A stretch of 32,552 nucleotides of DNA, from positions 1-32,552 of IMG/VR virus record IMGVR_UViG_3300006735_000115. One strand, given 5' to 3'. Both the position numbers and the translations under genes were made by a program. The DNA is from a virus. Taxonomy: Duplodnaviria > Caudoviricetes. This document shows positions 4,235 through 23,227 of this stretch, one piece after another. The notes below the pieces were generated by a model, which was not told where the DNA came from, made no database searches, and saw only the letters and a program-made list of their open reading frames with translations. Positions within the stretch are counted from its first letter, which is position 1. Each line of letters opens with the position of its first letter.

Positions 4235-5113
4235 GTGAAGCAACGCTGGCAAGTCTCACAGACCTCTACCGGATGCTACCGCGTGGACCTCAATGCAAGT
4301 GGTCCTCAGTGGCGGCAGTCCTTCCTCCTCAGCTCAGATCGGCACCACGACAACGCTCACAGTGACTGGAACCTCGAGGCTGTTCACCTCGAGCAGGCTA
4401 GGGAGCGAGCGGCTGGAATCATCGACATCGGTGACCTCGCGTGTGCCATGCAGGGCAAGTGGGATCGGCGGGCTGACCTCAGCCAATGCAGGCCAGAGCA
4501 TCAACAGGGGAGATACCTCGACAGCTTGGTGGAAACGGCTGCGGAGTTCTATGAGCCGTGGTCAGACCTCTTTGTCCTCATGTCGCCAGGAAACCATGAG
4601 AAGTCAATCCTGAAGAGGCATGAGACTGACCTGACTGACAGGCTGGCTGAGCGATTCAGGGTGATGGGCTCGCAAGTGGTGACTGGTGCCTATGGCGGGT
4701 TCATCAGGTTCTCGGTCGCTCTACCCTGCGGGAAGTCCTTGTCTCGGGTCATGTACTACCACCACGGTCATGGCGGTGGAGGGTTGATGACCCACGGCGT
4801 ACTCAACACTCGACGCAAGCAGTCATACCTTCCGAACGCTGACATTGTCTGGTCGGGTCACACTCATGACTCATGGCAGGTCAGGCTTGTGAAGATGGGG
4901 TTGACCAGCGGTGGGGCCATCAGGCTTGATGATGTCCATCACGTTTCGACTCCAGGCTACAAGGATGAAATGACTTGTATGGATGGGTGGCATGTCGAGA
5001 GGGGAGGGCCACCCAAGCCGCTGGGGGCGGCGTGGCTTCATCTGTCGCTCGAGGACCGGCAGAAGCCCAACAGGCACCGACGCATTCGGATCGACATTGA
5101 GGAGGCCAGATGA
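4235..5113 (+). CDS. Calcineurin-like metallophosphoesterase
   Basis: DxH (SDRHHD), GD (IGDL), GNHE, HHGHG and GHTH motifs in canonical order. Confidence 0.9.
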   Translation: MKQRWQVSQTSTGCYRVDLNASGPQWRQSFLLSSDRHHDNAHSDWNLEAVHLEQARERAAGIIDIGDLACAMQGKWDRRADLSQCRPEHQQGRYLDSLVETAAEFYEPWSDLFVLMSPGNHEKSILKRHETDLTDRLAERFRVMGSQVVTGAYGGFIRFSVALPCGKSLSRVMYYHHGHGGGGLMTHGVLNTRRKQSYLPNADIVWSGHTHDSWQVRLVKMGLTSGGAIRLDDVHHVSTPGYKDEMTCMDGWHVERGGPPKPLGAAWLHLSLEDRQKPNRHRRIRIDIEEAR

Positions 5114-5388
5114 GTCGTGAGGTGCCTAGGGATGTGGCGATCGCCATGCGCGACTCGGTCGCCCAGCTCGTCGAAAACGGTGGAGCGGAGGCTGTGCTGA
5201 TCTGCTTCACCCGCCACAAGCGAGGGCAGACCGAAACCTTTGCTGTCCCCTATGGGAACCTGCATTGTGTTCGTGGTCTGGCTGAATATGCCTATGGCAA
5301 GATGTGCGAAGGCATTGACGAGGAAGAGCTAGATGATGATGATGACGGCGATGATGATGATGACAGCCAAGAAGGTGACCCAGAATGA
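5110..5388 (+). CDS. Hypothetical protein with poly-Asp tail
   Basis: ATGA-coupled at both ends, GGAGG RBS. Confidence 0.7.
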   Translation: MSREVPRDVAIAMRDSVAQLVENGGAEAVLICFTRHKRGQTETFAVPYGNLHCVRGLAEYAYGKMCEGIDEEELDDDDDGDDDDDSQEGDPE

Positions 5389-5732
5389 GTGAAGACGAAT
5401 ACAAGCGAAGCGAGCTCGGTCGGTTCGGGGCTGGAAACAAGGGAGGTCCTGGCCGCAAGTTAGGAACCAAGGTTCCCAGCATGAAGGCCGCACTTGAGCG
5501 AGCCATCATCGACACACTGCGAGAGGAGGGGGAAGATGCCAGATCTGTCTTGGACGCCTTGGCACAAACGGCTCTCCACCTTGCTAGAGAGGGTGACTTC
5601 AAGTTCTGGAAAGAGATCATGGATCGGATCGATGGGCCAGTGACGCAGAAGGTCGAGCAGGACCAGACGATCAAGGTCGAGCGAGTTCCAACGCGAGCCC
5701 TCGAAGAGGACCACGAAGATGGACAGGATTAG
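5385..5732 (+). CDS. terS: Putative terminase small subunit
   Basis: N-terminal GRFGAGNKGGPGR motif and C-terminal A..GD....KEIMDRIDG.V.QKVE typical of small terminase-like (DUF5681-type) proteins. Confidence 0.65.
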   Translation: MSEDEYKRSELGRFGAGNKGGPGRKLGTKVPSMKAALERAIIDTLREEGEDARSVLDALAQTALHLAREGDFKFWKEIMDRIDGPVTQKVEQDQTIKVERVPTRALEEDHEDGQD

Positions 5733-5955
5733 CAGCTTGACGAATAGCCGTGTGCCACTGAACTGCGATTTGAATGCGCATGACCCTCGCGAGATTCTCA
5801 ATGCGGTCAAAGGCTCCGCTGTTGGCATCCAGTTGGTTTGTGCCAACAAGCTCAGCAAGATTGATGAGCATGACCTGAATTGCTTTCTGAGCAAGATTCA
5901 CGATCTATCAACCAACCTTGTGGAACGATTGGAGGCTCGAGATGGCAATCAATAG
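5719..5955 (+). CDS. Hypothetical protein
   Basis: Coupled ORF with upstream GAGGA. Confidence 0.55.
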   Translation: MDRISSLTNSRVPLNCDLNAHDPREILNAVKGSAVGIQLVCANKLSKIDEHDLNCFLSKIHDLSTNLVERLEARDGNQ

Positions 5956-6295
5956 GTTCCCAAAGTCCACGACAGTCTCAGGCTTCTATACCGGCCAGAT
6001 CGAGACGGTGTCTGACAAGGTGTATACCGTCGATCCCTCGACTGATCACGCTCTGACCATCACTTCGGTATTTGCCAAGACTGGGAGCGGAACGGTTGCT
6101 TGGCTGCTCAAGCAGGGCAGCAGCAATGTCGCGGTCATGTCGCTGAGTTCTAGTACGGGGGTCTATGGGTCGGCGATTTCAAACGCATCGGTGGCAGCAG
6201 GCGAAACGATCACGATGACCACGTCGAGCAACTCGTCAGGCACAGATTTGGTTTTCCGTATCGGATACGAGTACGAGGTTGATCTGGATGAGTAG
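5942..6295 (+). CDS. Ser/Thr-rich beta-type protein, possibly virion structural
   Basis: GGAGG RBS before ATG 5942; composition resembles small beta-sandwich virion proteins. Confidence 0.6.
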   Translation: MAINRFPKSTTVSGFYTGQIETVSDKVYTVDPSTDHALTITSVFAKTGSGTVAWLLKQGSSNVAVMSLSSSTGVYGSAISNASVAAGETITMTTSSNSSGTDLVFRIGYEYEVDLDE

Positions 6296-6725
6296 GTGGA
6301 ACTTCCTGCCTGCGCCTGTCGCAACCGACACGATCACTTGGACGCTGGTCCTGGGAACAGATCGCGGCAACAGATTTGTTCCTTCTTCCTATTCAGAAGA
6401 TGGGACTGGGGCAGGAGACTGGACTGAATACCCGCACGGGTCAATCCGAACGAACGGCGCGGACACCTATATCGAGTTCCTCGTCAGGATCGACACAGGC
6501 GGCACCTACTCCAACAACGGCGACTTCACGACCAACGCCACGATCTCGGACAGCCGGTTCCTCCATGAATCGACTGAGATGAGTTACTCGTCGCTCACGA
6601 TCGTGGAGGCCGGAGGAGCGTCCGGAACCATCCTTCGGTTCCGATTCAACGCTTCGGATACGTCCTCGTTTTATGACGCCTTCGCAACGGGCGACACCCT
6701 CACCATCGGATTGACTTACTCATGA
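6288..6725 (+). CDS. Thr/Gly-rich hypothetical protein, possibly virion structural
   Basis: Overlapping start, beta-rich composition. Confidence 0.6.
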   Translation: MSRWNFLPAPVATDTITWTLVLGTDRGNRFVPSSYSEDGTGAGDWTEYPHGSIRTNGADTYIEFLVRIDTGGTYSNNGDFTTNATISDSRFLHESTEMSYSSLTIVEAGGASGTILRFRFNASDTSSFYDAFATGDTLTIGLTYS

Positions 6726-6949
6726 GCAACCTAGACACGCTGGCGTTCTACGCCGCCATCGCCAAGCATCTCTCTGGAATCTCGAGCAACATCACGGCCC
6801 TCGCTGATGTGTACAAGAACCTGTCTCCTAGGTCATCCCTAGACGAAGACCTGATTGATGTCTTGGCGTCTAAGGCTGACGAGATGAAGGCCGCTGCTCT
6901 TGCCCTGAAGTCGGTCGAATACGACCCTGAAGATACGGAGTCACCATGA
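6722..6949 (+). CDS. Hypothetical helical protein
   Basis: ATGA-coupled at both ends. Confidence 0.6.
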   Translation: MSNLDTLAFYAAIAKHLSGISSNITALADVYKNLSPRSSLDEDLIDVLASKADEMKAAALALKSVEYDPEDTESP

Positions 6950-7578
6950 TCAAATACCTCTCCGCTCTGCTTGTCTCGACGATCGTCCTAGCTGATGATC
7001 CTTGCAGTCCTCGCTTGGTTCCGATGGTCACCACGCGGATTCCTGTCTTTGATTCCGAAGGCGAGCCGACCGAGACACTTCAGACCATCTCAATCGCAGA
7101 AACGGACACAAGGAGCCTGATCGTTGACTACCTGACGCCGCAGGACACAAGCGTGGCTGGTCAGTTTTCAATGGTCGGCCAGATTGAGGCGGCCAACCTC
7201 TCAAGCGTGGCGAGGCGGATCAAATACAGGCAATCAATCAGGATTGACGAGGGCATGATGCCTATCTTCCAAGAGGGGTCTAGCCTGTGCTGGGATCCGG
7301 AAAAAAGGACGATCATCGCGGACTACCAGATGCCTGTCGGTCCAGGCGAAAACGTCACGCAAGAAATCACATGGACTGTCAACCTTCGCCTTGAAGGGCT
7401 GCTTTCGGATATCAATGGGGACGGATGGGTCGATGCGATTGACCAAGGGATTCTTCTCGGCGACTGGGGAAGTAGCAACCCGCGATCAGATCTCAACTTT
7501 GACGGGGTGGTCAACGGGGAGGACTTGGGAATCCTGTTCAGCCAGTGGTCTGAATCTTCTGACGATGAGGAGTCATGA
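6946..7578 (+). CDS. Secreted-type protein with C-terminal dockerin-like double Ca-binding repeat
   Basis: Signal-peptide-like MIKYLSALLVSTIVLA; DINGDGWVDAIDQGILLGDWG...DLNFDGVVNGEDLGILFSQW. Confidence 0.8.
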   Translation: MIKYLSALLVSTIVLADDPCSPRLVPMVTTRIPVFDSEGEPTETLQTISIAETDTRSLIVDYLTPQDTSVAGQFSMVGQIEAANLSSVARRIKYRQSIRIDEGMMPIFQEGSSLCWDPEKRTIIADYQMPVGPGENVTQEITWTVNLRLEGLLSDINGDGWVDAIDQGILLGDWGSSNPRSDLNFDGVVNGEDLGILFSQWSESSDDEES

Positions 7579-7716
7579 ATGGAACCGTCGATCCTGCCCC
7601 TGCTCGAGAACAACGTGACCCCCTTGATTGTGTGGGTCTTGGTTTACTTCACGATGGTGAAGGGGATCAGGCGTGATCTTCAAGAGATCAAAGACAAGCT
7701 CAAAGACCTTGAGTGA
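7579..7716 (+). CDS. Small single-TM protein (45 aa, holin-like); not in the ORF track
   Basis: MEPSILPLLENNVTPLIVWVLVYFTMVKGIRRDLQEIKDKLKDLE; GAGGAG upstream; fills the gap before terL. Confidence 0.6.
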   Translation: MEPSILPLLENNVTPLIVWVLVYFTMVKGIRRDLQEIKDKLKDLE

Positions 7717-7719
7717 CCC

Positions 7720-8904
7720 ATGAACATACAAGTTGCTCCTATCGAGGAGGCTCTGCATACGGGCCAGCTTCGTGTTCTTGGCGAGTCAGCTAGGTTCAAC
7801 GTCTTGGAGTGTGGCCGTCGATTCGGCAAGACGCACCTCGGCGTCCAGCTCGCTATGGAGAAGGCGATCGACGGCGATGAGGTTGGCTGGTTCGCTCCAA
7901 GCTATCGATACTTAGCGGATCCTTGGCGAGATCTTGAGCAATCCCTGAACAGGATCACCCATCGAATCGACCGTGTGGAGAAGAGGTTCGAGCTGATGAC
8001 TGGGGGCTCCATTGACTTCTGGAGCCTTGACTCGGTCGATGCAGGTCGTGGCCGTCGATATGACCGAGTCATCATCGACGAAGCTGGGATAGTTAAGGAC
8101 TTGGGGCCAGCTTGGCAGGAGACGATTCGCCCAACCCTTGCGGACAAACGGGGAGATGCTTGGTTCCTTGGCACGCCGAAGGGGCGGTCATTCTTCCATC
8201 GCTGCTTCGAGCGCGGGCAGATTGGTGACGAGGGCTGGAGGTCTTGGAGGCTTCCGACGACCTCGAACCCCACCATTCCCAAGTCCGAGATCGAGGCCGC
8301 GAAGCGTGAGTTGCCCCAGCATGTCTTTGACCAAGAGTTCATGGGCATCCCAGCCGACGACGGCGGCAACCCCTTCGGATTGGATTCGATCCAAGCCTGT
8401 ACCATCCCGCTGAGTACAGATCCGCCAAAGGCTTTCGGGATCGACTTGGCGAAGAGCGTGGACTGGACTGTGGTATGTGGCCTCGACCAAGATGGTAGGG
8501 TTTGCCTTTTGGAACGATGGCAATCTCCCTGGTCGGAAACGGAGATCAGGATCGAGAGATTGATCGGCGAGGCCCCTGTGCTGATTGACTCGACAGGTGT
8601 GGGTGACCCAATCGTCGAGGGCCTTCAGCGAAAGTCTCCAAGGATTGAAGGATTCAAGTTCTCGCAGACATCAAAGCAGCAGCTCATGGAGGGCTTGGCG
8701 TCGGCTTTTCAGACTAGGAGAGTCGGCATTCCAGACGGATGGCTTCGCACAGAATGTGAGACTTTCGAGTTTGAATATACGAGGACTGGGGTTCGCTATG
8801 AGGCTCCGTCAGGGATGCACGATGACGGAGTCTGTGCGTTGGCCCTCGCGGTGCGGTGTCTCGAGACGCTTGCAAAGTCCAACTTTGACTTCAGGATCAT
8901 CTGA
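7720..8904 (+). CDS. terL: Terminase large subunit
   Basis: Walker A GRRFGKT, Walker B VIIDEA, GTPKG coupling motif, nuclease GIDLAK...D and HDD motifs. Confidence 0.95.
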   Translation: MNIQVAPIEEALHTGQLRVLGESARFNVLECGRRFGKTHLGVQLAMEKAIDGDEVGWFAPSYRYLADPWRDLEQSLNRITHRIDRVEKRFELMTGGSIDFWSLDSVDAGRGRRYDRVIIDEAGIVKDLGPAWQETIRPTLADKRGDAWFLGTPKGRSFFHRCFERGQIGDEGWRSWRLPTTSNPTIPKSEIEAAKRELPQHVFDQEFMGIPADDGGNPFGLDSIQACTIPLSTDPPKAFGIDLAKSVDWTVVCGLDQDGRVCLLERWQSPWSETEIRIERLIGEAPVLIDSTGVGDPIVEGLQRKSPRIEGFKFSQTSKQQLMEGLASAFQTRRVGIPDGWLRTECETFEFEYTRTGVRYEAPSGMHDDGVCALALAVRCLETLAKSNFDFRII

Positions 8905-8906
8905 CT

Positions 8907-11900
8907 ATGCCGATCGGTGACTTGTTCGGACTTCTCCGACAAAAGAAGCAGACCAGCACAGACAAGTATCTCGCTTCGAGCGTGAACATTGTCAGCACTG
9001 GCGAGAAGGGGCAGCTTCGGCCCCCCTTCAGCCAGCAGCGCGGAATCAGCGCATTCCATTCTTGGGTATACGCTGCTGCAACAATCAACGCCAACGCTGT
9101 CGCCTCTGTCCCGCTGCGCCTTTACAAGAAGGCCGACAAACGGACCAGGCAAAAGACTCGTGGCGTCCCGCTTCGCACCAAGGCGTACCTGCTCGGAGAT
9201 GGCCCTGGCGACCAGCGGCCTTCAATGTCGGTGCTTCGCAAGGTCGCAGACTTTGGCGATGAAGTCGAAGAGATCACGGGTGACGACCCGATCCTCAACC
9301 TCTTGTCTACAGCCAACCCATATCTCAACGGCTTTGACCTGACGGTTCTTCGGATTCTGTACGGCGAGCTGACGGGAAATGCTTATCTGCATCCGATCAT
9401 TGACGACGCGACAGATCTGCCTTCTGAGCTTTGGCCTCTTGCTCCGAACTATGTTGAGGTGGTCCCGTGTGACGAAAACTTCGTCAAGGGGTATGTCTAC
9501 GGCATCGACACATCGAAGAAGCAGACCTTCGAGCCAGATGAAGTCATCCACTTTAAGCGCCCAAACCCTGGAAATTACTACTACGGGATGGGCAAAGTGG
9601 AAGCGGCTTTTGGTGCGGTCATGTCCAATGAGGCACTGCACCAGATGGACCTCTCGACCTTTGCCAACTCGGCTAGGCCCGACTACGCAGTGGTGGTGAA
9701 GGGAACGCCTACTGGTGACCAGCTTGACCGTTTCCAGAGCCAAGTCGAGGAGCGTCTGAAGGGGACTAGGAAAGACGGCAACTTCATCGCTGTCTCTGGT
9801 GATGTCCAGTTCACCCCTCTGAACTTCCCCCCCAAGGATCTGGCAGGTCGCGAGGATGTGGTCGAAGAGATTGCGGCAATCTTTGGCGTGCCTGTGACGA
9901 TGCTGAAAGCTAACGACCCGAACCTCGCAAGTGCCAAGGCGGGCTTTAGTCAGTGGCGTGAAGGTTCAGTCCTGCCCCTGTGCCGGATGGACGAACAGGA
10001 GCTCAACCAGACTCTGCTTCCATTGTTTGGTGCGGAAGATGACTACTTCCTAGCCTACGACAACCCCGTGCCGAAGGACGAAACCTTCGACCTTCAGCAG
10101 CGTCAAACGGCTGTAGCTGGTGGTTGGCGAACTCCAAACGAAGCGAGGCAGGAAGAGGGACGTGAACCAATTGAAGACGAGATGGCGGACAAGCTCCTCC
10201 ATGCTGGTCAGCCTCTTGGTGGAATGGGGGCTGGTGGAATCATGCCGCCCTTTGGTGGCGGACTGCCAGGTTTACCGGCTCCTCCTGTTGAAGAAGCCCA
10301 AGAAGCGACTCCAGAGCAGCCAGTGGCCGAAGGCACTCCGTCGCAGGATGGCACCACCGCCCCTGTTCCTGCTGATCCGACTGCAAACCTCAACGGTGCG
10401 CAGATTCAGAGTGTCATCGCCATCTTGGACGGTGTTGCTGCGGGAACCATTGCCCAAACTGCTGCTGTCGAGCTGATCATGGCGACAGGCGTGACTCGAG
10501 TGAGCGCGCAGCGAATGGTCGGTGACCAAGACGATGCCAAGCCAGAGGCTCAGGCCGAAGCGGAGATCGAGGAAGCCATCGAGCCGATGTCTGAAGAGCA
10601 GAAGTCGGCAGTGAACATGGCGACTGTGGCCGATGTCAGTATGGCTCTTCGGGGCGGATACCTGACCAAATGGGAAGCAACCAAGACCTTGCAAGCTGCG
10701 GGCATGACTCGCAAGCATGCGGAGCGACTTGTGAAGCTGGAGGTCAAGAAGGCTAACGTGCTGAGGACCGAAGGCGACCTGTACGAAACCAAGGAGGAAG
10801 CTGAGCGGATTGCTGAGATACTCGGATGCGAAGGTCACCACACGCACGATGTCAACGGTCGAACGATGTATATGCCATGCGGTGAAATGTCTGACTACAC
10901 CGAGCTGACTGGCGAAGAGCATTCAGGCGACGATGACCTAGACCTTGTCGATGCCAAGGCCGTGGCGGACATTGATCTCAAGCCGTCCGAGACTATGTCC
11001 GATCTTGCCGATCGTGGTCTCAAGCTACGGGAGGAACACGGCAGAGGCGGCACCGAGATCGGCGTTGCTCGAGCCAGAGACATCAAGAACCGAGACAACC
11101 TCTCGCCGGAAACGGTTGGCCGCATGGTCAACTTCTTCTCAAGGCATCGCGTCGATCTTGACGCACCAGCCGCGAAGCCAAGCCACAAGGAATATCCATC
11201 AGCGGGTGTCATTGCTTGGCTGCTTTGGGGCGGCGACCCAGCAGACCCTGAAGGCGGCGGACATGCTTGGGCAAAGGAAAAGCTGAGTCTGATCGAACGC
11301 GAACGCGACGGACAGAAGGGCGGTGGGGTCACTGGCCTGATCCCAAAAATCTGGGGCAGTCATGTGACTGCCAAGGCAAGAGCTGCTCTTGGAAGAGTTA
11401 TCCTTGAGAAGGCTGACGACTGTGGTACTGGTGCAGGCGGTTTCAAGCCAGGAAACGACTGTGCTGAAGGTCACGGGCGACCTCCAAAGCCCGAAAACAT
11501 TGGCGATCTTAAGGATTCCCTCAAAGACAAGTATCCACTTGAAAAGCTCTCGCTATACGAGAGAGGCGACCATATTGAGCTGATGAACATTGAAGTCGAA
11601 GACGACGCCCAAGGGCAAGGCGTCGGCACTGACGCAATGGATGAAATCAAGGACTACGCACAGGATGCGGGAAAGCCCATAGTTCTGACTGCGGAGGCAA
11701 GTTCTGGAAGCAGGGAGGACTTGAACAGGTTCTATGAATCTCTCGGTTTTGAATCCGTCGAGAGCGGAGGGAGTCGAGACTATTCCCTCCCCGCTCATAC
11801 GCACATCTGGAAACCAGAAGAAAGCAAGGACAAGCCGAAGACTGAGACGCCTGAGTTCAAGGAGTGGATCGGCCAATCAGTAGAACAAGACGACGGCAAG

Positions 11901-13802
11901 CCTCGAGTTTTGTATCACGGAACAGCGGGCGTGTTTGACGAGTTCTCTGAAGGTGTCACATGGGTCTCAGAGGAAGAGGACCACGCCCAACTGTATGCAG
12001 ACGCCGCCGAATCGATGAGCGGGAACCAAGGTGGTGTAATTCCCCTCTATGTACGATCAGAGCGGCCTGTCAAGGTTTCGGATCGACCGAAGAACGTGAA
12101 ATTGGACACGCTTGCCAACGAATTGCTGGCATCGGCTCGCAAGGACAAGAACACCTTCGACATCAAGGAAGCAAGGGAAAGCCTAGACAAGTTCCGACGA
12201 GGGTGGGAGTCGTCTGGTTCCGACGCAAAGCAGGAAAGACCAAGGCACGAATGGTGGTTCGACGAGGGACGAGCTAACGCTAACGAGAAGAACTTCGCCA
12301 AGCTGGTTCAGTCTCTCGGTTACGACTCAGTCGAATACTACGAGACGATTGGCGGGTATCGAGGGATGCCTGAGAGAAAGATTCGCACTGTTGGCGTCTT
12401 TGATTCCAATCAGCTCAAGTCTTCGAGTGACAATGATGGCAACTTCAGCCGCGACAGCGGAGACATCACCAAGTCAGCCGACAACTGCGGGACCGGAGCC
12501 GGTGGGTTCCAGGCTGGCAACGACTGCGCTGAGGGGCATGGCAGGCCAGAGGCTGGAACTGAAAAGGTCCGAACTGGAGAGGTGACGCAAGAAGAACGAG
12601 ATGCCTACGACAAGTTTGCCAAGCGGAATGAGGTTGACGACCAAGGCAGGACTTCGGCCAAAGCATGGAAAGACGGCGACGACTGGACAAGTCCCGACGG
12701 TTTGACCTATGCACACGACGAAACAAACGAGGAAATAGGCACGGGCGGAATGGGCCAGAGGCTTTTTGACTTTTGCGATCAAGGCGAAGAGATGATTCTC
12801 CGTCCTGATGCGAACAATGATATTGACCTTGGTTTCAACCAGGAAATCATGGACAACTTTGAGACAGACGCCAGAGATCTTTCTGACGAAGACACAAAGC
12901 TGATCGAGGGATTCACTGCCCACGAATACCAAAACATCAATTCAGTCATGAGGAAGGGGAGCGTCCCTTGGGTCGCACAGACAGAGGAGGCTTTCGCTCG
13001 GGTGGAAGAATTGGCTTGGGATGCCGGAGCGTTGTCGTCAAGTTTTGACATCGATCAAATGAGTGATTCTGAGGTTGTTGAGTTCGCGACGGTCAATCAG
13101 GAGTTCACCGAAAAAATCCACGAGGCGTCTAAGGATTTGAGGACGGGCGTTGACACGATCGAAACTCAGGCCATAGGTTCAAGTTTTGTATACACGGCAG
13201 GCAATCGGTATCGAGGGATGGGGGACGCTAAGGAGTACGCCAGTGGGATCGAAGATTCTGCATATGCCTTGAGTTTGGAAAACGCGAAAAACAATCCAAG
13301 CGAATATCGGGAATCTCTCAGCAATCTTCTCTACAACATGGAAGAGTTTGATCGCCCTTTCAGTTTGGGCATCGAAGAAATCGAAAGTGGATATCAAGAT
13401 GCTGGCAGAAGGATTGACAACTTGGTTGACGCGCCGCTCCGTGCAGATGGAAAGCCGATGACTGTGTATCGAGCGAACAGCACAAAGGGAGTCGGAAGCA
13501 AGCGTCTATATGACGCAATCAACTCCGGAGTCAAAACCTACAAGCTGGACGGCGTTGCATCTGCCTCTACCGATGGGATGTTCGCATCAGATTGGAGTCA
13601 CGGAGACCATCAGGTGGTCATGAGGATGAAGGTAACGAATGGATTATTCGTCGGTCCTATTTCCTCAAACCCCAGAGAGTCCGAGGTGATTCTTCCAAGA
13701 GGAACCGAGTTTAAGATCAACAGCGTTGAAAGGCTCAGCTCGCAAAGCCTTGACGAAAGTCATGGGACCGTCATCGTTGTTGACATGGAGGCAATCCAAT
13801 GA
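8907..13802 (+). CDS. Portal protein (HK97 type) fused to a DUF3721-like domain, an unnamed head-associated domain, a GNAT, an ART-PolyVal-like domain and a VIP2-type ADP-ribosyltransferase
   Basis: Portal motifs in the first ~430 aa (WVYAA, LTGNAY, EVIHFK, YYGMG, TPNEAR); GCEGHH..YMPC; AWLLWGGD; QGQGVG..FYESLGF; YHGT..VFDSNQLKS; VYR..SAS..ESEVILPRG. Confidence 0.9.
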   Translation: MPIGDLFGLLRQKKQTSTDKYLASSVNIVSTGEKGQLRPPFSQQRGISAFHSWVYAAATINANAVASVPLRLYKKADKRTRQKTRGVPLRTKAYLLGDGPGDQRPSMSVLRKVADFGDEVEEITGDDPILNLLSTANPYLNGFDLTVLRILYGELTGNAYLHPIIDDATDLPSELWPLAPNYVEVVPCDENFVKGYVYGIDTSKKQTFEPDEVIHFKRPNPGNYYYGMGKVEAAFGAVMSNEALHQMDLSTFANSARPDYAVVVKGTPTGDQLDRFQSQVEERLKGTRKDGNFIAVSGDVQFTPLNFPPKDLAGREDVVEEIAAIFGVPVTMLKANDPNLASAKAGFSQWREGSVLPLCRMDEQELNQTLLPLFGAEDDYFLAYDNPVPKDETFDLQQRQTAVAGGWRTPNEARQEEGREPIEDEMADKLLHAGQPLGGMGAGGIMPPFGGGLPGLPAPPVEEAQEATPEQPVAEGTPSQDGTTAPVPADPTANLNGAQIQSVIAILDGVAAGTIAQTAAVELIMATGVTRVSAQRMVGDQDDAKPEAQAEAEIEEAIEPMSEEQKSAVNMATVADVSMALRGGYLTKWEATKTLQAAGMTRKHAERLVKLEVKKANVLRTEGDLYETKEEAERIAEILGCEGHHTHDVNGRTMYMPCGEMSDYTELTGEEHSGDDDLDLVDAKAVADIDLKPSETMSDLADRGLKLREEHGRGGTEIGVARARDIKNRDNLSPETVGRMVNFFSRHRVDLDAPAAKPSHKEYPSAGVIAWLLWGGDPADPEGGGHAWAKEKLSLIERERDGQKGGGVTGLIPKIWGSHVTAKARAALGRVILEKADDCGTGAGGFKPGNDCAEGHGRPPKPENIGDLKDSLKDKYPLEKLSLYERGDHIELMNIEVEDDAQGQGVGTDAMDEIKDYAQDAGKPIVLTAEASSGSREDLNRFYESLGFESVESGGSRDYSLPAHTHIWKPEESKDKPKTETPEFKEWIGQSVEQDDGKPRVLYHGTAGVFDEFSEGVTWVSEEEDHAQLYADAAESMSGNQGGVIPLYVRSERPVKVSDRPKNVKLDTLANELLASARKDKNTFDIKEARESLDKFRRGWESSGSDAKQERPRHEWWFDEGRANANEKNFAKLVQSLGYDSVEYYETIGGYRGMPERKIRTVGVFDSNQLKSSSDNDGNFSRDSGDITKSADNCGTGAGGFQAGNDCAEGHGRPEAGTEKVRTGEVTQEERDAYDKFAKRNEVDDQGRTSAKAWKDGDDWTSPDGLTYAHDETNEEIGTGGMGQRLFDFCDQGEEMILRPDANNDIDLGFNQEIMDNFETDARDLSDEDTKLIEGFTAHEYQNINSVMRKGSVPWVAQTEEAFARVEELAWDAGALSSSFDIDQMSDSEVVEFATVNQEFTEKIHEASKDLRTGVDTIETQAIGSSFVYTAGNRYRGMGDAKEYASGIEDSAYALSLENAKNNPSEYRESLSNLLYNMEEFDRPFSLGIEEIESGYQDAGRRIDNLVDAPLRADGKPMTVYRANSTKGVGSKRLYDAINSGVKTYKLDGVASASTDGMFASDWSHGDHQVVMRMKVTNGLFVGPISSNPRESEVILPRGTEFKINSVERLSSQSLDESHGTVIVVDMEAIQ
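11409..11483 (+). repeat. Coding repeat copy 1 (KADDCGTGAGGFKPGNDCAEGHGRP)
   Basis: Precedes the GNAT domain. Confidence 0.95.
12471..12548 (+). repeat. Coding repeat copy 2 (KSADNCGTGAGGFQAGNDCAEGHGRP)
   Basis: Precedes the first VIP2-type ART block. Confidence 0.95.
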
Positions 13803-15109
13803 GCAGCAGATTCGACGAAGACATGCCAATCATTGCGGTTGATGACAGAGAGTTCAAGGCGACAGACGACACCTCAAAAAAGTCAAAGGCTGACAACTGC
13901 GGGACCGGAGCTGGTGGCTTTCAGCCTGGCAATGACTGCGCTGAGGGGCATGGGCGTCCTCCTTCTGATCGAAGAAGTGGGCCGGTCACCCGCGAAGAAC
14001 AAATGGCATTCTCCGATTTCTCGATTGGAATGCGACGGACTTGGAATCAAAACCGAAACGACCCAAGTCAAATCACAAGAGACGCAGACGGCAACGAGTA
14101 CGAAGAGCATGAGGTCGAGAGCGGTGACAGTATTGGGGGCTTCGACACGCGAATGGGTGGACAGGAGCTGATGTTAGAGATTCAAGGCGATTTGACGCCT
14201 CGAGAAAAGGAAGACCTGAATGCTTGGTCAAGAAACGGGGAGACAGTCGTTGACTTTTTTCGTGAAGGAGAGAGCCGTCTTGACAGAGCAGACAAGAGTG
14301 CGAAAGAGTTCCAAGATGTCCTTGATGATGCTTTCGATGACAGAGTTCTGAATGGAATCGATTCAAAAACCGACGCTGTGAATGTTGCTCAAAACGTCAT
14401 ATATGCGTCGAACATGCTTGACGGGCATCTTCGTACAGCGGACAGCGTCCTAAAAGGTCAGATTCCCAAGACCGAAACTGGGGATTTAGTGATTGCTGAT
14501 GATCGAATCACTGAAGTTCTGGAAAGCGTAAAAGAATACGACCAAAAGACCAGGGACTTGAGAAGACTGATCGACCAGCCCGCAAATACGACGACCGAAG
14601 AAATCGTCAAGAGGGTTCGGGAACTCAAGAAGATGCAGCCTGAAGCACTTGGACCTTTGAAAAGTTTTTTCAAAGAAGTGCATGATCTTGAAGGTGACTA
14701 TATCGATCGCTTGTCCAATAGCCTGGACAAGCCAATTCGGTCGGACGGAAAACCCGTGACGGTCTGGCGCGGCGTACGAGTGACCAACGCTGGAGCGAAG
14801 AGGCTATATGACGACATCATCAAGGGAGACGACCGCTTCGAGTTCACTTCTGTCAACTCTGCGAGCCTTTCGTCTAGCGTTGCGGCAGATTTTTCGAGAG
14901 CCAACTCATCCTCTGAGGGACCAGCAATCGTCTTCAAGATTACGGCAAGGAAAGGCGTAGCCATCGGAACGCACTCGCAGTACGAAGAAGAGTCAGAGAT
15001 TCTGCTGCCGCCTCGGTCAAACGCCCGCATCACAAGCAAAAAATTGGTGTTCAACGAAGAGGCTGAAAAGCCTGTCCTGTATGTCGAAATGGAGATGGAA
15101 GATGAATGA
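13799..15109 (+). CDS. VIP2/Alt-type mono-ADP-ribosyltransferase with N-terminal CGTGAGG repeat
   Basis: R-S-E triad: VTVWRG, NSASL, EESEILLP; paralogous to the C-terminus of the portal fusion. Confidence 0.85.
   Translation: MSSRFDEDMPIIAVDDREFKATDDTSKKSKADNCGTGAGGFQPGNDCAEGHGRPPSDRRSGPVTREEQMAFSDFSIGMRRTWNQNRNDPSQITRDADGNEYEEHEVESGDSIGGFDTRMGGQELMLEIQGDLTPREKEDLNAWSRNGETVVDFFREGESRLDRADKSAKEFQDVLDDAFDDRVLNGIDSKTDAVNVAQNVIYASNMLDGHLRTADSVLKGQIPKTETGDLVIADDRITEVLESVKEYDQKTRDLRRLIDQPANTTTEEIVKRVRELKKMQPEALGPLKSFFKEVHDLEGDYIDRLSNSLDKPIRSDGKPVTVWRGVRVTNAGAKRLYDDIIKGDDRFEFTSVNSASLSSSVAADFSRANSSSEGPAIVFKITARKGVAIGTHSQYEEESEILLPPRSNARITSKKLVFNEEAEKPVLYVEMEMEDE
13886..13960 (+). repeat. Coding repeat copy 3 (KADNCGTGAGGFQPGNDCAEGHGRP)
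   Basis: Shares two 20-nt identical blocks with copy 2 (GACAACTGCGGGACCGGAGC; GACTGCGCTGAGGGGCATGG). Confidence 0.95.
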
Positions 15110-16481
15110 CAAGCCTGAGCCAAGGGACGACTTCCCAAACTCCTTCGATATGATCCCGATCTACAAGGCCGAGGGTGACAGCGATTCCAGCACACCCGCA
15201 AAGCCAAGCGAGCGAGTCACGGGTTCAGACCAGAACCCCGAAGGCAGTGCTTCCGGTTCGCGTGGTGGCATCGAGATATCTGCCGCCCAGGCCAAAGCAC
15301 TTGAGAAAAAGCGTGACGACCACAACGAAAAGCATGGCGACAAAGAGGGGAAGAAGGTCAACCTTGGAATGCTGAAGGCGGTGTATCGCCGTGGAGCTGG
15401 TGCTTTCTCCACCTCGCACCGGCCAGGCATGACCAGACAGCAGTGGTCTATGGCTCGAGTCAATGCGTTCCTGTACCTCGTACGCAATGGCAAGCCAGAA
15501 AATGCGAAGTACACGACCGACTACGACCTGCTGCCGAAAGGCCATCCCAAGAAGTCGGACAAGAAATCAGGCGAGGAGCCAGTTGCCAAGACCTACGAAT
15601 GGCCGGAGGAGACTAGGAAGCACCGGCTGATGATCGAGGGTTTGGATGATGACCTCATCAGGTACAAGGCCGAGATCCCTGCCGACGATGGTGGCGATGC
15701 TGACCAAAACATCCGAAAGCGTGAGCGTCGAACGCCAGCTCAGAGAATTGAGTCAGCAGCCAGGCAAGCCCAGGAGGATGTCGCCAGGGTCATCCAGGCC
15801 GAGGTCAAGGTCCGGTCCAAGACCATTGAGCTGACCTCCAAGCTCAGGGCGAAGGAGATGCTCAGAAAGCTGGTGGGTCCAAAGAAAAGCCTCCTGGACA
15901 GTCTTGTGAAGGCATACCAGGACGCTGTCCAGGGCGGCGGTGTCGCGGGTCTCAGTCGAATCAACGACCTTCTTCTTCGTGAAGGAATCCGCAACGTCGC
16001 AGCCGTTGACGTTCGCAAGATCCTGTCCGAATCAATCAAGGAGCGAGCTGCATTCATTGCAGAGTCGTTGATTGATGAATCAGTCGCAAACTTTGCCAAT
16101 TCGGTCGAAGTTGGTGAAAGCGTTGACCAGATCGCTAGGCGAATCCAAACGTCTCGAGACCTGAGCCCCTCTCGTGCCAGGACTATCGCCAGGACCGAGT
16201 CGGCAGCGTCGTATCACGACGGCCAGATCGCCGCATGGAAAGAAGTCGGATATGTCACCAAGAAGCACTTCTTGGCGGCTGGCGGAGCTTGTGAGTTTTG
16301 CGAAGCAGTTGAAAACGAGTATGGGATGGGAAAGAAGTCGATCCCGATTGACCAGCCTTTCGTGAAGGCCGGTTCGACAATAGTTTCACAGAGCGGTAGA
16401 ACTCTCACCGCCGGTATAGATATGCAGGGAACAGTACATCCAAATTGCAGATGTGACTTTCTAGCAGCGGAGCCCGAATGA
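15102..16481 (+). CDS. MuF / SPP1 gp7-like minor head protein with an extra N-terminal domain
   Basis: RARTIARTE, CxxC and HPNCRC MuF motifs; N-terminal VYRRGAGAFSTSHRPG..QQW..ARVNAF domain. Confidence 0.85.
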   Translation: MNDKPEPRDDFPNSFDMIPIYKAEGDSDSSTPAKPSERVTGSDQNPEGSASGSRGGIEISAAQAKALEKKRDDHNEKHGDKEGKKVNLGMLKAVYRRGAGAFSTSHRPGMTRQQWSMARVNAFLYLVRNGKPENAKYTTDYDLLPKGHPKKSDKKSGEEPVAKTYEWPEETRKHRLMIEGLDDDLIRYKAEIPADDGGDADQNIRKRERRTPAQRIESAARQAQEDVARVIQAEVKVRSKTIELTSKLRAKEMLRKLVGPKKSLLDSLVKAYQDAVQGGGVAGLSRINDLLLREGIRNVAAVDVRKILSESIKERAAFIAESLIDESVANFANSVEVGESVDQIARRIQTSRDLSPSRARTIARTESAASYHDGQIAAWKEVGYVTKKHFLAAGGACEFCEAVENEYGMGKKSIPIDQPFVKAGSTIVSQSGRTLTAGIDMQGTVHPNCRCDFLAAEPE

Positions 16482-17077
16482 TGCAGACCAAGACCCTTGA
16501 CGCCAGCCTTGAGTCGGACGGGATCAAGGTTGATGCCGTGATCTCGACCGAGAGCATTGATCGGGACGGCGAAGTCCTGATTGCTCAAGGCATGGATTCG
16601 AGTGAGTACGACGACAATCCTGTCGTCTTCTATAACCACGATTATGCTCAGCCGATCGGACAGGTCACGAACCTGCGAAGAGGCAAGGACAAGGTTGAGG
16701 CCACCATCAAGTTCGCCAAGAGGCCCGACGATTTCCAAGGCTCATATTTCCCTGAGTTCGTCGAATCCTTGGTCCAGCAAGGCATCGTCAAAGGCATCAG
16801 CGTCGGGTTTGTGCCAAAGCCTGGCGGCGTCCGAAAGGCGTCAGCCAAGGATCGAGAATCCTACGGCGACGATGTCCAGCAGGTCTATTCACAGTGGAAG
16901 CTGCTTGAGGTCTCGGTGGCCCCTCTCCCCGCTAACGGTCGAGCTTTGGTCTCTGCTGTGCGGAAGGGGTTAGTTGACCAAGCTGAAGCCAAGAAGTGGA
17001 TAGGCTGCGAAGCCAGCAGTGCGAAGCACGTGATTGAGGTCCAAGTTCCAAAGCGTGGCCTTATGGACAAGTTTTGA
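16478..17077 (+). CDS. Prohead maturation protease (HK97 family)
   Basis: DRDGE, NPVVFYNHD..PIG, GISVGF and LLEVSVAPLPAN motifs. Confidence 0.93.
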   Translation: MMQTKTLDASLESDGIKVDAVISTESIDRDGEVLIAQGMDSSEYDDNPVVFYNHDYAQPIGQVTNLRRGKDKVEATIKFAKRPDDFQGSYFPEFVESLVQQGIVKGISVGFVPKPGGVRKASAKDRESYGDDVQQVYSQWKLLEVSVAPLPANGRALVSAVRKGLVDQAEAKKWIGCEASSAKHVIEVQVPKRGLMDKF

Positions 17078-17188: not shown

Positions 17189-18625
17189 ATGCGAATCGTG
17201 ACTCTCGCGGAGGCCCAAGCGGACCTCCAGAACATTGCCAACCAAGTCGGCTCCAGTCGTTTCATCAAGGCCAAGGGCCTTTACCTCGACAAGGTCATGG
17301 TCACTGCCGAAGACGGCAAGCCCATGTCTGCTGAAGATCTTGAGGTCCATGTGGCCCCCAAGGCGATGCAGGAAGAAGAGGAAGAAATGAAGACGATGGA
17401 GGAAGACGAGGACAAGGAAGACAAGATGGAGGAAGAGGAGGAAGAGGAAAAGCGTACATACAAGGGACTGAGCCACCGCAAGGCTCGACAAAAGGCTTTT
17501 GCTGCCCCGATGGTTGGAAAGGGCCGGAACCACTACAGTGGCCGTGTCAAGAACTTCAAGGACAACCACAACGGTGACGCTGTGGACAAGGCCCTCGCGT
17601 TCGGTCACTGGCTCAACGCACAGATGGGGCACCGCAAGAGCCTCGCCTTCTGCGAGCGGAATGACCTGCACCTCAAGGCGCACACCGAAGGCGTCAACAG
17701 TGCTGGCGGCTTCCTCGTCCCTGAAGTCTTTGAGACTGAACTGATCAGCCTTCGGGAAGAGTTCGGCGTGGCGCGAGCCAACTGCCGGATTCGTCCGATG
17801 ACCACTGACGTTCACCGCATCCCGCGACGGTCGGCGACCCTGACCCCGTACTTTGTCGGTGAGGCCAGTGCGATCACTGAAAGCACCCAGACCTTTGAGC
17901 AGGTCTCGCTCGTCGCTAAGAAGCTCGCCTGTATCACGACCATCTCGTCCGAGCTTGATGAGGATGCGTTCCTCAACATCAGTGATGACGTTGCGGGTGA
18001 AATCGCCTACGCCTTTGCCAAGCGCGAAGACGAGTGCCTGTTCCTTGGTGACGGCACCTCGACCTACGGCGGAATTGTTGGTCTTGCCGACTCGATGGGT
18101 ACGGCTGGCTCTGTTGATACCACCGAACTCAACACCACCGTCGGTGATGTCGCGTCGGCCGACGCCATCGCTGACCTCACCAAGCTCATGGCTCTGCTTC
18201 CGCAGTACGCCGACAACGCTCGCACTGCCTGGTACATGCACAAGTCGGTGTTCCACGCCTACGCCGAACGCGCTTCTCGCCTGCAAGGTGGCAACGACTT
18301 CCAGCAGACCCTTGGTGGCAAGTATGTCCCGACTCTGTTCGGATATCCGGTCCACTTCTCGCAGGTTCTCCCGAACAGCACTGACCACACCGACGAAAAG
18401 AAGCTGCTTTACTTCGGCGACCTTTCCCTGGCTGCCTCGTTCGGCGATCGTCGTTCGACCACCATCCAGGTCTCGGAACATGCCACGATCAACAGCGGCA
18501 ACGTCTTCGAGCAGGACGAGATCGCCATCCGTGGAACCGAGCGGTTCGATATCAACTGTCACGACACTGGTGATGGCAACGACGCCGGACCGATTGTGGC
18601 CCTCCTCATCAAGGACGAAAGCTGA
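17189..18625 (+). CDS. Major capsid protein (HK97 fold) with N-terminal acidic scaffold/delta region
   Basis: KAHTEGVNSAGGFLVPE, KKLA...SSEL, LFGDG-like, TLFGYPV and YFGDLS motifs; lies after the protease. Confidence 0.95.
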   Translation: MRIVTLAEAQADLQNIANQVGSSRFIKAKGLYLDKVMVTAEDGKPMSAEDLEVHVAPKAMQEEEEEMKTMEEDEDKEDKMEEEEEEEKRTYKGLSHRKARQKAFAAPMVGKGRNHYSGRVKNFKDNHNGDAVDKALAFGHWLNAQMGHRKSLAFCERNDLHLKAHTEGVNSAGGFLVPEVFETELISLREEFGVARANCRIRPMTTDVHRIPRRSATLTPYFVGEASAITESTQTFEQVSLVAKKLACITTISSELDEDAFLNISDDVAGEIAYAFAKREDECLFLGDGTSTYGGIVGLADSMGTAGSVDTTELNTTVGDVASADAIADLTKLMALLPQYADNARTAWYMHKSVFHAYAERASRLQGGNDFQQTLGGKYVPTLFGYPVHFSQVLPNSTDHTDEKKLLYFGDLSLAASFGDRRSTTIQVSEHATINSGNVFEQDEIAIRGTERFDINCHDTGDGNDAGPIVALLIKDES

Positions 18626-18646: not shown

Positions 18647-19099
18647 ATGATTCACTCACAAAACACAAAGTTCGTTAACGTCTTGGACCCAGTCTCGCTT
18701 TCGGCTGCTCCGGTCGCGATGGACAACTCGATTGACACCGCAGGCTACGATTACTGCACAATCATCTTTTCGATGGGCTCGATCAATGGTGCCTTCTCGG
18801 AGCTCCATCTCGAGCAAGCGGATGACAATTCTACTTTCGTCACGACTGGCGTGGCAGGATTTGACTTCTCTGGCGGCATCGAGTCCGATGGGACTACGGC
18901 AGCGCTTCCTGCTGGCACTGACGATGACAAGATGATGGTCTTTGAAGTTGATCTTCGTGGCCTAAAGCGATACCTTCGCGTCGAGGCCACTTCGGCCGGT
19001 TCGGCTAACTTGACTTCTTGCGTTGCGATTCTGTCGCGAGCAAGCGAGACCTCGAACGTCCCAGCCGATCGCGGCTGCTTGGGTATCATCACCGGCTGA
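18647..19099 (+). CDS. Putative capsid decoration/cement protein (paralogue 1)
   Basis: Directly after MCP with AAGGA RBS; IDTAGY..., LEQADD and KRYLRV jelly-roll-like motifs. Confidence 0.7.
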   Translation: MIHSQNTKFVNVLDPVSLSAAPVAMDNSIDTAGYDYCTIIFSMGSINGAFSELHLEQADDNSTFVTTGVAGFDFSGGIESDGTTAALPAGTDDDKMMVFEVDLRGLKRYLRVEATSAGSANLTSCVAILSRASETSNVPADRGCLGIITG

Positions 19100-19114
19100 G
19101 AACCTTTCTTTTTG

Positions 19115-19145
19115 GACCCTTGCCCCCCCTTGGGGGGCAGGGGTC
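19115..19145 (+). terminator. Strong GC hairpin after the capsid/decoration genes (terminator or mRNA stabiliser)
   Basis: GACCCTTGCCCCCC-CTT-GGGGGGCAGGGGTC, 14-bp stem with one G-U pair; weak downstream U tract. Confidence 0.6.
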
Positions 19146-19158
19146 TATTGCTGAGGAA

Positions 19159-19674
19159 ATGATGCGACGTTCACAAAACTACCACTTCCGTCCTGCGTTT
19201 CTTGGTGACTGCGGCACTTCTAGTGTTTCTTCAGTCATCGACACCCAAGGTTATGTTGAATGTGTCTGGCTGATTAACTTTGACTGTGCATCTTGGCCCG
19301 ATGACACCGTGACAGACTCAATCACTGGCTTGCTCATCACCGGATCGGATAATTCTGACGGCACGACAGGCGCGGAGACTCTGTATAGCGCAGGAGGAAC
19401 AAAGGTGACATCCGGTGCTACTTCAACGCTACCTGGCGACAAGGACATGCGGGTCATCTCGATTCGGCTAGATCCTTCATTGCCAAAACGGCGATATCAA
19501 CGGCTGACGATGGCATGTAATCAAGCGTCATCGTCTTCGGTCAAGATGTTCGCAGTGTGCGCCCTTCAGCACAACGGGCAGTATGCAATGACCAACGAAT
19601 TGTGTGCAGGCACCAATGGCGAGGCAGTCATCGGCCGAGTTCCTACCACACCTGGAGGCACGTTTGTCCAATGA
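19159..19674 (+). CDS. Putative decoration protein (paralogue 2)
   Basis: SQN.., VIDTQGY.EC, LPG.DKD, KRRYQRL and AVCAL align by eye with 18647-19099; GAGGA RBS. Confidence 0.65.
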   Translation: MMRRSQNYHFRPAFLGDCGTSSVSSVIDTQGYVECVWLINFDCASWPDDTVTDSITGLLITGSDNSDGTTGAETLYSAGGTKVTSGATSTLPGDKDMRVISIRLDPSLPKRRYQRLTMACNQASSSSVKMFAVCALQHNGQYAMTNELCAGTNGEAVIGRVPTTPGGTFVQ

Positions 19675-20168
19675 GGCAGTACCTACAATTCAGATGCGTC
19701 CAAGGTCGCAAGCCGCAGGCAGGAAACGCCGGATCATTCAACATCGTCGAACTCGACAAGTACGAAGAAGTCATCATGGTCATGGGCTACAACGCAAGCT
19801 CTGACCCTGGCCGTCCTTTTGGTTTGTCCAACGGCACGAACACCCTCGCCGACAGAGCCATGTTCTGTCAATTTGACGAGGGCAATCTGGGGTCGGCAGT
19901 TGCCAACACTGCGGTAACCGTCGAGGGTACGACGTGTGCCAATCTAAGCACAGGGAACAGTCTGCGAGTCGCCTACCTTGATTCGAGGATATCGACTGGG
20001 GTTGCTACGTCAGAGGGTGAAGGTTCACCGGCTTTGCGGACAGCATGTTTTGGCCTTTGCTTCTTGCCAAACACATACGATGAACTTGATCCAGAGGACA
20101 ACGCATGGTCCAACGCTGTGCCTGGCGATGCCCTCTCTGAAGTTGGCGAAGTGGTCAGGATTGACTGA
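19671..20168 (+). CDS. Putative decoration protein (diverged paralogue 3) / structural protein
   Basis: Similar size and layout (Q..F, VELDKYEEV, terminal C..L.F segment, GEVV); weaker similarity. Confidence 0.5.
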   Translation: MRQYLQFRCVQGRKPQAGNAGSFNIVELDKYEEVIMVMGYNASSDPGRPFGLSNGTNTLADRAMFCQFDEGNLGSAVANTAVTVEGTTCANLSTGNSLRVAYLDSRISTGVATSEGEGSPALRTACFGLCFLPNTYDELDPEDNAWSNAVPGDALSEVGEVVRID

Positions 20169-22327: not shown

Positions 22328-22759
22328 ATGGGAACGACAGTCGCAATTGGATCTGATGGAAGTTGCACGCTGCCATCTGGATATGCCGCGCAACTCAACA
22401 CTTGGTCTGCCAGCGTGACTAGGCAGACGAGCGTCGTGACGGGGTTCGGCGATGTAGGCACCTCAAGGGTTGCCTCGAAAATCTTTGACATCACAGGATC
22501 GGCGGGTGGTTTTCCGTCCTATGACGCTTCCAACACAAGCCCGATTTCAACCTTCGCAGGGGCAAGCGGGCCAAATGGTGGCGAAGTCGTTCTCCTTGTG
22601 AATGGGAGCGATGGCGGTAGTGACGAGTGTTCTTTCACTTTCAACGCGGTATTCAGTTCGATCGCTCTTGCATCCACGCAAGACGGCGAGGCGACGGTCG
22701 CCTTCAACTTTGAGCTTGCTGCGAGTGCGGCTCCCGTGTTCACTTGGTTTGAAACTTGA
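22328..22759 (+). CDS. Putative tail tube protein (paralogue A)
   Basis: Position after terminator; GSDG..., W, DITGSAGG and FNFE beta-rich layout. Confidence 0.7.
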   Translation: MGTTVAIGSDGSCTLPSGYAAQLNTWSASVTRQTSVVTGFGDVGTSRVASKIFDITGSAGGFPSYDASNTSPISTFAGASGPNGGEVVLLVNGSDGGSDECSFTFNAVFSSIALASTQDGEATVAFNFELAASAAPVFTWFET

Positions 22760-22774
22760 TTCTGGAGGCGACTG

Positions 22775-23227
22775 ATGCCTGAGACTGTAGCAGTAGGATC
22801 AGATGGTAGTGCATCGATGGGGACTGGCTTCAACGCAGCCCTCAACACTTGGAGTGCCACGCTGACGCGATCGACGCATGTCATCACTCAGTTCGCGCAG
22901 ACCAGCCTTGCGCACAATCGGCGGGCTTCTGGCGTCCTTGACATCACAGGATCGGCTGGCGGTTTCCCCTTGTATGACGACGGTTCCGACACCGATGGTG
23001 ACAACGCCATCTCTCCGATCAAGCACAGCAGCACGGCCTTGGATGATCGTGGTGGCGGCACTGTGGTCCTGTATGTGGTCGAGCCGTCTGCGACGCGCTG
23101 CTCGCTGACTTTTGCCGCAGTGTTCAGTTCGTTCGCGTTTGGCGTCAGCCAAGACGGTGATTCGACGGTACAGTTCAACTTTGAAATGAATCAGGCAACT
23201 GCGCCCATCGTGGCTTGGGATACTTGA
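22775..23227 (+). CDS. Putative tail tube protein (paralogue B)
   Basis: Full-length similarity to 22328-22759; GGAGG RBS. Confidence 0.7.
   Translation: MPETVAVGSDGSASMGTGFNAALNTWSATLTRSTHVITQFAQTSLAHNRRASGVLDITGSAGGFPLYDDGSDTDGDNAISPIKHSSTALDDRGGGTVVLYVVEPSATRCSLTFAAVFSSFAFGVSQDGDSTVQFNFEMNQATAPIVAWDT

Follow-up and report, generated by a model that had tools for sequence, protein, structure and literature searches.

A cysteine-containing peptide tag heading enzyme cargos in phage head genes: a candidate delivery handle whose DNA joins exchanged cassettes

How head-packaged phage enzymes are selected, released and ejected is known for few phages. Domains of the ART-PolyVal, ADP-ribosyltransferase (ART), GNAT, 2H and Nudix types occur fused to portal, MuF or protease proteins, and the accessible text of the papers that describe them proposes that they are packaged and injected (PMC5512222, PMC9503650, PMC5576092, PMC3482391). 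In the T4 system of gp21, internal proteins and Alt, the head protease processes internal cargo, an ADP-ribosyltransferase included, and varied cargo carries a short reusable signal, the capsid-targeting sequence (CTS); in the available part of the source it is described as about 10 amino acids long, placed before the cut and removed (PMC9026906). The Dar proteins of phage P1 are internal head proteins that are cut by the prohead protease and co-ejected with the DNA; the accessible text presents DarA and Hdf as folded domains bound to capsid and DNA and describes no short tag (PMC12810830). The present work concerns a short peptide (the tag) that stands before enzymes in head genes of IMG/VR virus record IMGVR_UViG_3300006735_000115 (Duplodnaviria; Caudoviricetes), positions 1 to 32,552; this whole 32,552-nucleotide stretch is called the window.

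Polymorphic toxins offer a further parallel. In CdiA and Rhs proteins, a conserved motif (VENN and DPxG, respectively) precedes the variable cargo and is also the crossover point; such junctions belong to bacterial secretion systems, where each precedes a single C-terminal toxin accompanied by an immunity gene. The tag, too, is a conserved motif with exchanged downstream cargo, but several tags form an in-frame array in a phage head gene. As in the head-fused polyvalent effectors, one chain of the window holds several conflict-related enzyme domains (GNAT, ART-PolyVal and ART in the portal open reading frame, ORF), and the cargo is fused to the portal-terminase head module or lies within it; the accessible text on those effectors describes no repeated peptide tag, inter-module protease code or tag-bounded cassette exchange. 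Identity with a T4-type CTS was rejected, as the tag follows the putative cut residue, would not be lost from the cargo and recurs within polyproteins. The tagged array is comparable in its working to a polyvalent cargo array whose junctions are of polymorphic-toxin style, and is not a T4 CTS. We consider it moderately probable that the tag heads its cargo once exposed by a cut and is likely a delivery handle, and that its DNA joins cassettes of relatives, likely through homologous recombination.

Three tag copies are present in the window, with Cys-to-Cys spans of 11421-11462, 12486-12527 and 13898-13939. The initial annotation had placed a 25-residue repeat with two invariant Cys and a His at 11409, 12471 and 13886; the three repeats are real, and these positions mark the Lys codon that precedes each copy. 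The copies fall in the 77-nt repeat family D1, and the tag pattern found 0 matches in 100 shuffles of the window. Their placement was confirmed: within the portal ORF, copy 1 precedes GNAT plus ART-PolyVal and copy 2 precedes an ART; copy 3 lies in a separate ART gene. The statement that the repeat heads every effector module holds for GNAT, ART-1 and ART-2 and not for ART-PolyVal, which shares the tag of the GNAT. Copies 2 and 3 have the two identical 20-nt blocks that had been noted (12480-12499 = 13892-13911; 12522-12541 = 13934-13953) and agree in 15 of 23 codons, where 9.0 would be expected (p 0.008), the remainder of the two ART paralogues sharing 36 of 100; copies 1 and 2 have just 5 of 21 codons in common. 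Since public contigs bridge copies 1 and 2 (from two runs for copy 1 and one run for copy 2, one run being possibly the source sample), the layout is unlikely to be a misassembly.

All three copies are on the + strand. The first two belong to a portal polyprotein of 1631 residues (8907..13802) with the order portal, DUF3721, module X, tag 1, GNAT, ART-PolyVal, tag 2, ART-1. It comprises the HK97-type portal domain (9264..10160; PF04860, E 4e-49), an untagged DUF3721 module that starts shortly after a Lys (10782..10889; VKK|ANV) and the untagged module X, phrog_2859, which starts after DAK|A (10962..11312). The putative Lys cut site (11409-11411) and tag 1 occupy 11409..11483 and are followed by the GNAT acetyltransferase (11559..11750; PF00583, E 1e-6) and by the ART-PolyVal domain with KPK|T in front (11889..12446; PF18760, E 1e-14). 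The next putative Lys cut site (12471-12473) and tag 2 (12471..12548) precede ART-1, which has the R, SxS and ExE motifs (12549..13802; PF03496, E 1e-10). The ART-2 gene stands alone (13799..15109) and encodes 436 residues: a 30-residue pre-peptide, tag 3 and an ART domain (PF01129, E 1e-4, just under the cut-off). Its putative Lys cut site (13886-13888) and tag 3 cover 13886..13960, with the tag at residue 34. ART-2 is a paralogue of ART-1, 26% identical.

The family beyond the window has a core, [DN]CGTGAGGFxxGNxC, of only about 15 residues, followed by a Gly-rich spacer. The 25-residue repeat first described thus includes a local His tail: the His is invariant in the window's lineage and not elsewhere (an xxxHG tail is found in only 11 of 300 tags), and no Cys or His is conserved besides the two Cys of the tag. 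A degenerate DNA pattern matched 144 stretches in a partial IMG/VR scan, with about 280 estimated in total, and yielded 128 distinct tag contexts. As this pattern fixed the core residues, profile matches give a fairer picture of tag variation. A 20-position profile found 388 protein cluster representatives at E<=0.001, with up to 6 canonical copies per chain and with variants such as CGIGxxGF and CGANAPGGGGF. Across 140 DNA versions of the tag, synonymous codons vary freely and the residues are fixed, which indicates that selection acts on the peptide. A site-specific recombination site was rejected as an identity for the tag, since the free synonymous variation leaves no conservation at the DNA level.

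Head genes are the usual setting of the family. Tags are found in extensions of portal, MuF and protease proteins or in adjacent genes. A domain scan covered 54 of 56 representative tag-bearing ORFs (two short ones were omitted), and 30 contain a portal (26, HK97 or lambda type), S78 (3) or MuF (1) domain; the neighbours of the others are mostly head genes, one Mu-type module among them. At least 100 residues follow 321 of 336 tags, and several tags lie no more than 12 residues from the predicted protein start. Cargos were named by scanning 96 of 150 profile-found proteins; they include ARTs, ART-PolyVal, GNAT, a zeta-toxin-like kinase, PARP-like, topoisomerase I, Nudix, 2H, DRAT-like and oxidoreductase domains, many others being unmatched. 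In one such protein, P0013, a pyridine nucleotide-disulphide oxidoreductase stands behind the first tag. Most long tagged proteins have large parts without a Pfam match, and the tag, which marks the start of each cargo, is therefore an index to many unannotated candidate anti-host or anti-defence proteins. This family-wide context supports the proposal that the tag is a reusable signal that goes with enzymes carried in head modules.

Eight tag contigs were found in GTDB, six of them titled Planctomycetota, Verrucomicrobiota or Lentisphaerae. Four have confirmed head genes, three are short or unconfirmed, and one (L298) has none within 6 kb. At 4453-8664 on the - strand of L298, two neighbouring genes have a common N-terminal leader, followed by the Cys tag or by a Cys-free GFQKGN variant; they lie beside primase-like genes, with no head genes in 12 kb. 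L298 is possibly a satellite that loads cargo into the capsid of a helper.

The position of the tag relative to a putative protease cut was compared across lineages. The N-terminal domain of the capsid protein ends in Lys in some lineages (HLK|AHTEG in the window) and in Arg in others; by HK97, we take this end to be the maturation cut. The flanked loci formed 28 clusters, of which 16 were classed: 6 Lys and 7 Arg by capsid alignment (L295 is ambiguous), and one cluster each of Leu/Phe, Glu and Ala, read by eye from protease or capsid boundaries. The lineage's own residue was found at -2 to -5 of the first Cys in 12 of 13 Lys contexts and 17 of 23 Arg contexts, and in 13/13, 1/1 and 1/1 contexts of the Leu/Phe, Glu and Ala classes. 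The cluster score was 13.67 out of 16, against 6.81 when permuted (p 5e-6); with Lys and Arg clusters only it was 10.67 out of 13 (exact p 0.005), and shifted-window controls scored 3.39 and 7.61. Pairs of tags from the same protein (72 proteins) match in their choice of Lys or Arg in 156 of 173 cases, against 92 when permuted. Where one protein has two tag types, a candidate residue is common to both in 15 of 15 cases against 9.9 permuted, by a lenient measure.

Across lineages, the tag mostly stands 1-5 residues after the putative cut. Since the residue before it tracks the putative cut residue of the lineage, released cargo would begin with the tag, and the tag would not be a loading leader that is cut off. 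In most of the lineages shown, module X also starts after this residue, which suggests that the cut code is general and that the tag is added for some modules. Module X is found in most lineages, tagged or untagged, and its carriers are portal, protease and stand-alone genes. An Asn class, which stands outside the independent covariation test, was seen in L293, in L296 and in many of the profile-found proteins. In L296 (2392-12040; the record title is that of an archaeal metagenome-assembled genome), chains of 2411 and 753 residues carry three tag types, mostly after an Ala/Gly/Pro-Asn boundary; these boundaries suggest an Asn-specific head protease. Several phages of Arg lineages (L002, L018, L036, L042 and L065) have two tandem capsid-family genes after the protease.

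Tags of unrelated sequence can occupy the same slot. Orthologous cargos carry either the Cys tag or a YDPxQxRDxxG[KR]W tag, of which a motif scan found 170 distinct contexts; both occur in one ORF on three contigs, and one locus (L030) has a single Cys tag and four YDP tags. A YDP-tagged homologue was found for 14 of 139 Cys-tag cargos, and in L039 all four cargos have one, at 45-69% identity. The three tag types of L296 are combined in one locus. This interchangeability suggests that the slot counts more than the cysteines. The Cys2-His knuckle that had been proposed fails on two grounds: the His is not conserved, and Cys-free tags occupy the equivalent slot.

The second part of the proposal, that tag DNA is where cassettes are exchanged, was examined in 83 loci of the window's portal lineage (not dereplicated). 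Tags are present in 23 of them and head 45 cargos, which fall into 28 families. The portal-to-protease spacing, measured in the 45 loci with the whole span visible, is 1.1-2.6 kb in 33 of 34 relatives without tags, 2.4-3.5 kb with one tag (5 loci) and 6.0-7.4 kb with 3-5 tags (6 loci). The one tagless relative with a long spacer, L353, has two fibre- or collagen-like genes, read by eye, between portal and MuF (6419-10065); a collagen-repeat gene is in a similar place in L050.

The clearest exchanged cassette is the tag-to-tag segment with GNAT and ART-PolyVal (11418..12541), which matches the second slot of L303 (5035-6158) at 92.8% identity, while the L303 backbone is 72-78% identical. ART-1 of the window is a stand-alone gene in L303 and L046. 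Tag 1 of the window is chimeric: its 5' side matches tag 1 of L303 and its 3' side tag 2, with the switch at ~11433-11441. Tag 2 is also chimeric, with a switch between 12501 and 12539, and at two more junctions, in relatives, the switch again falls within the tag, which makes four of four hand-picked junctions. L330 and L333 have a tag-to-tag block in common at 94%, and a contig of another study, about 93% identical to 11466-15790, begins at tag 1. Of the 53 alignment ends in eight tagged loci, 16 are located in tags (3.1 expected), a count inflated by alignments that run on through conserved tags. For tags of the same locus, 264 of 506 codons are identical where 213 would be expected, the pairs not being independent. 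These junctions support the suggestion of a recombination handle for cargo swapping, and the exchange would most simply be ordinary homologous recombination between recent copies. Tag-bounded exchange shows a tangible way for polyvalent proteins to shuffle their domains.

In the mechanism that we propose, cargo would be carried into the procapsid as a fusion to portal, MuF or protease or with a short pre-peptide in front, as the architecture and the published MuF- and portal-fusion proposals suggest. The prohead protease would then, very probably, cut after the residue of the lineage, Lys in the window. It is plausible, at slightly less than even confidence, that the tag, once exposed, interacts with a conserved partner as the cargo is ejected. 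Cassettes would be gained, lost, rearranged and fused in frame through crossovers between tag copies; the junctions are seen directly, and crossing over is a highly probable cause of them. A delivery handle is favoured because the tag would remain on the cargo, because in the window it heads enzymes and not portal, MuF, DUF3721 or module X, and because it is common to different head types. Two candidates for a universal partner were rejected: 8 of 27 long tag loci lack module X, and in several lineages the scanned neighbours did not include MuF. A bolder reading is that HK97-, lambda- and Mu-type heads share interchangeable N-terminal ejection signals, unmasked by the protease and encoded by DNA that works as a cassette system, giving a plug-and-play portal effector array that satellites may exploit; the candidate signals are CGTGAGGFxxGNxC, YDPxQxRDxxG[KR]W, HPRxxxGxF, CGxxFIxxxxC and CPTGxGGGIDNSC. 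We put this joint claim forward tentatively, as a possibility on the doubtful side. A mutation of 15 residues makes the long-standing question of how such enzymes are selected, released and ejected testable, and, if the tag is a delivery signal, it could help to load laboratory phages with proteins.

Several points weigh against the delivery-handle reading. Cutting, packaging and ejection are all predicted from sequence, and the cut residue itself comes from alignment position. Twelve of the 28 clusters were unclassable, and the Leu/Phe, Glu and Ala classes, assigned by eye, were not blind. The covariation has misses, namely L027, L299 and 5 of 6 contexts of the L005 cluster, in which a basic stretch lies between the putative cut residue and the tag. 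Agreement within proteins is partly inherited through duplication, the four junctions were chosen by hand, and the alignment-end count is inflated as stated. ART-PolyVal in the window is without its own tag, and one homologue stands outside a head module, the tagged gene of L298 with no head gene within 6 kb. Lastly, T4 delivers foreign proteins with only the removable CTS, according to the available part of the source (PMC9026906), which suggests that a retained tag is not generally needed for ejection.

Other functions of the tag were weighed against the same evidence. If it were a capsid-loading address for the procapsid or scaffold, with cutting merely removing a spacer, this would suit its presence on stand-alone cargo genes with pre-peptides seemingly unrelated to one another, its place within 12 residues of the predicted start in several proteins, and L298, which may be a satellite filling the head of its helper. 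However, most copies belong to fusions with portal, MuF or protease, for which no address is required, one tag serves HK97-, lambda- and Mu-type heads, and the T4 address, in the part of the source available, lies before the cut and is removed (PMC9026906). With the tag downstream of the putative cut, the T4-type loading address of the initial annotation has become less likely, and a loading role of any kind is unlikely. The distance of 1-5 residues past the putative cut in most lineages would equally fit the downstream half of a protease recognition site, which only speeds cuts before bulky cargo. This is improbable given that the capsid protein, module X and DUF3721 follow the same residue without a tag, that unrelated tags occupy the equivalent slot, and that the tag is constant across proteases of five inferred specificities.

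A DNA-binding hook would be one form of delivery handle: the tag, akin to DUF5681, would tether cargo to the packaged DNA, the sole partner common to all head types. The probable small terminase of the window (DUF5681, 5385..5732, + strand; E 2e-4, below the Pfam cut-off) has an N-terminal RxxxGRFxxGN..GPGR motif with a loose likeness to the tags. Small terminases of the lineage, compared over 11 local sequences, read RDxxG[RK]FxxGNxGGPGR, which overlaps with the YDP tag and with the local end of the Cys tag, FxxGN..GxGRP. However, the hhalign probability is weak for the Cys tag (7-9%) and 44% for the YDP tag, the mean net charges are -0.6 and -0.8 against +3 for the terminase motif, and DNA binding by DUF5681 is an assumption; such a hook is about as doubtful as half of a protease site. 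The junctions inside the tag and the codon sharing within loci, above expectation with pairs that are not independent, would agree with a mere linker kept as a recombination handle or with the target of a site-specific recombinase. Against this, residues are fixed while synonymous positions vary freely, copies 1 and 2 differ in most codons, and the tag is retained in single-copy genomes, so that a linker or recombinase target is very unlikely.

Searches for relatives of the tag returned little. A Pfam scan of the three window copies gave no family at E<=1, the tag profile had 0 matches at E<=10 among sequences of solved structures, and tblastn with a 30-residue tag piece, a short query of low sensitivity, gave no match in 50,697 phage records; the ART-PolyVal region matched 9 such records at below 60% identity. 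AlphaFold2 on the tag alignment was uninformative (mean pLDDT 66, no secondary structure), also as to the distance between the two Cys in a possible disulfide loop or Cys-bridged dimer, and Foldseek against PDB gave 0 matches. The ESM Atlas held no usable match by features, with all structure rows at TM<=0.32, and a prediction of a tag dimer with zinc scored 0.03, which bears neither way. The strings CGTGAGGF and CPTGEGGG occurred in 0 papers, and no published description of the tag was found in a search that left supplements and most subscription papers outside.

The remaining head genes, all on the + strand, agree with a segment of a tailed-phage genome that has terminase, portal, MuF, S78 protease and HK97-fold capsid genes. 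The large terminase (7720..8904; phrog_2, E 2.5e-38) precedes the portal gene. Directly after ART-2 comes an untagged protein with DUF5824 and MuF domains (15081..16481, by domain match), followed by the S78 prohead protease, the putative cutting enzyme (16478..17077; PF04586, E 1e-8), and by the HK97-fold major capsid protein (17189..18625) with its putative maturation site at K163|A164 (HLK|AHTEG). Just 5' of the large terminase, at 6946-7578, a secreted-looking protein with a dockerin-like end is encoded (Pfam E 4e-4). Phycisphaerae commonly have dockerin-like repeats, which hints at the host of the window's phage. The stretches 18647-20168 and 22328-23227 hold several small paralogue-like genes after the capsid gene and two adjacent genes with shared repeats of 86 and 45 nt (D2 and D10), which are probably duplicated tail-tube genes.

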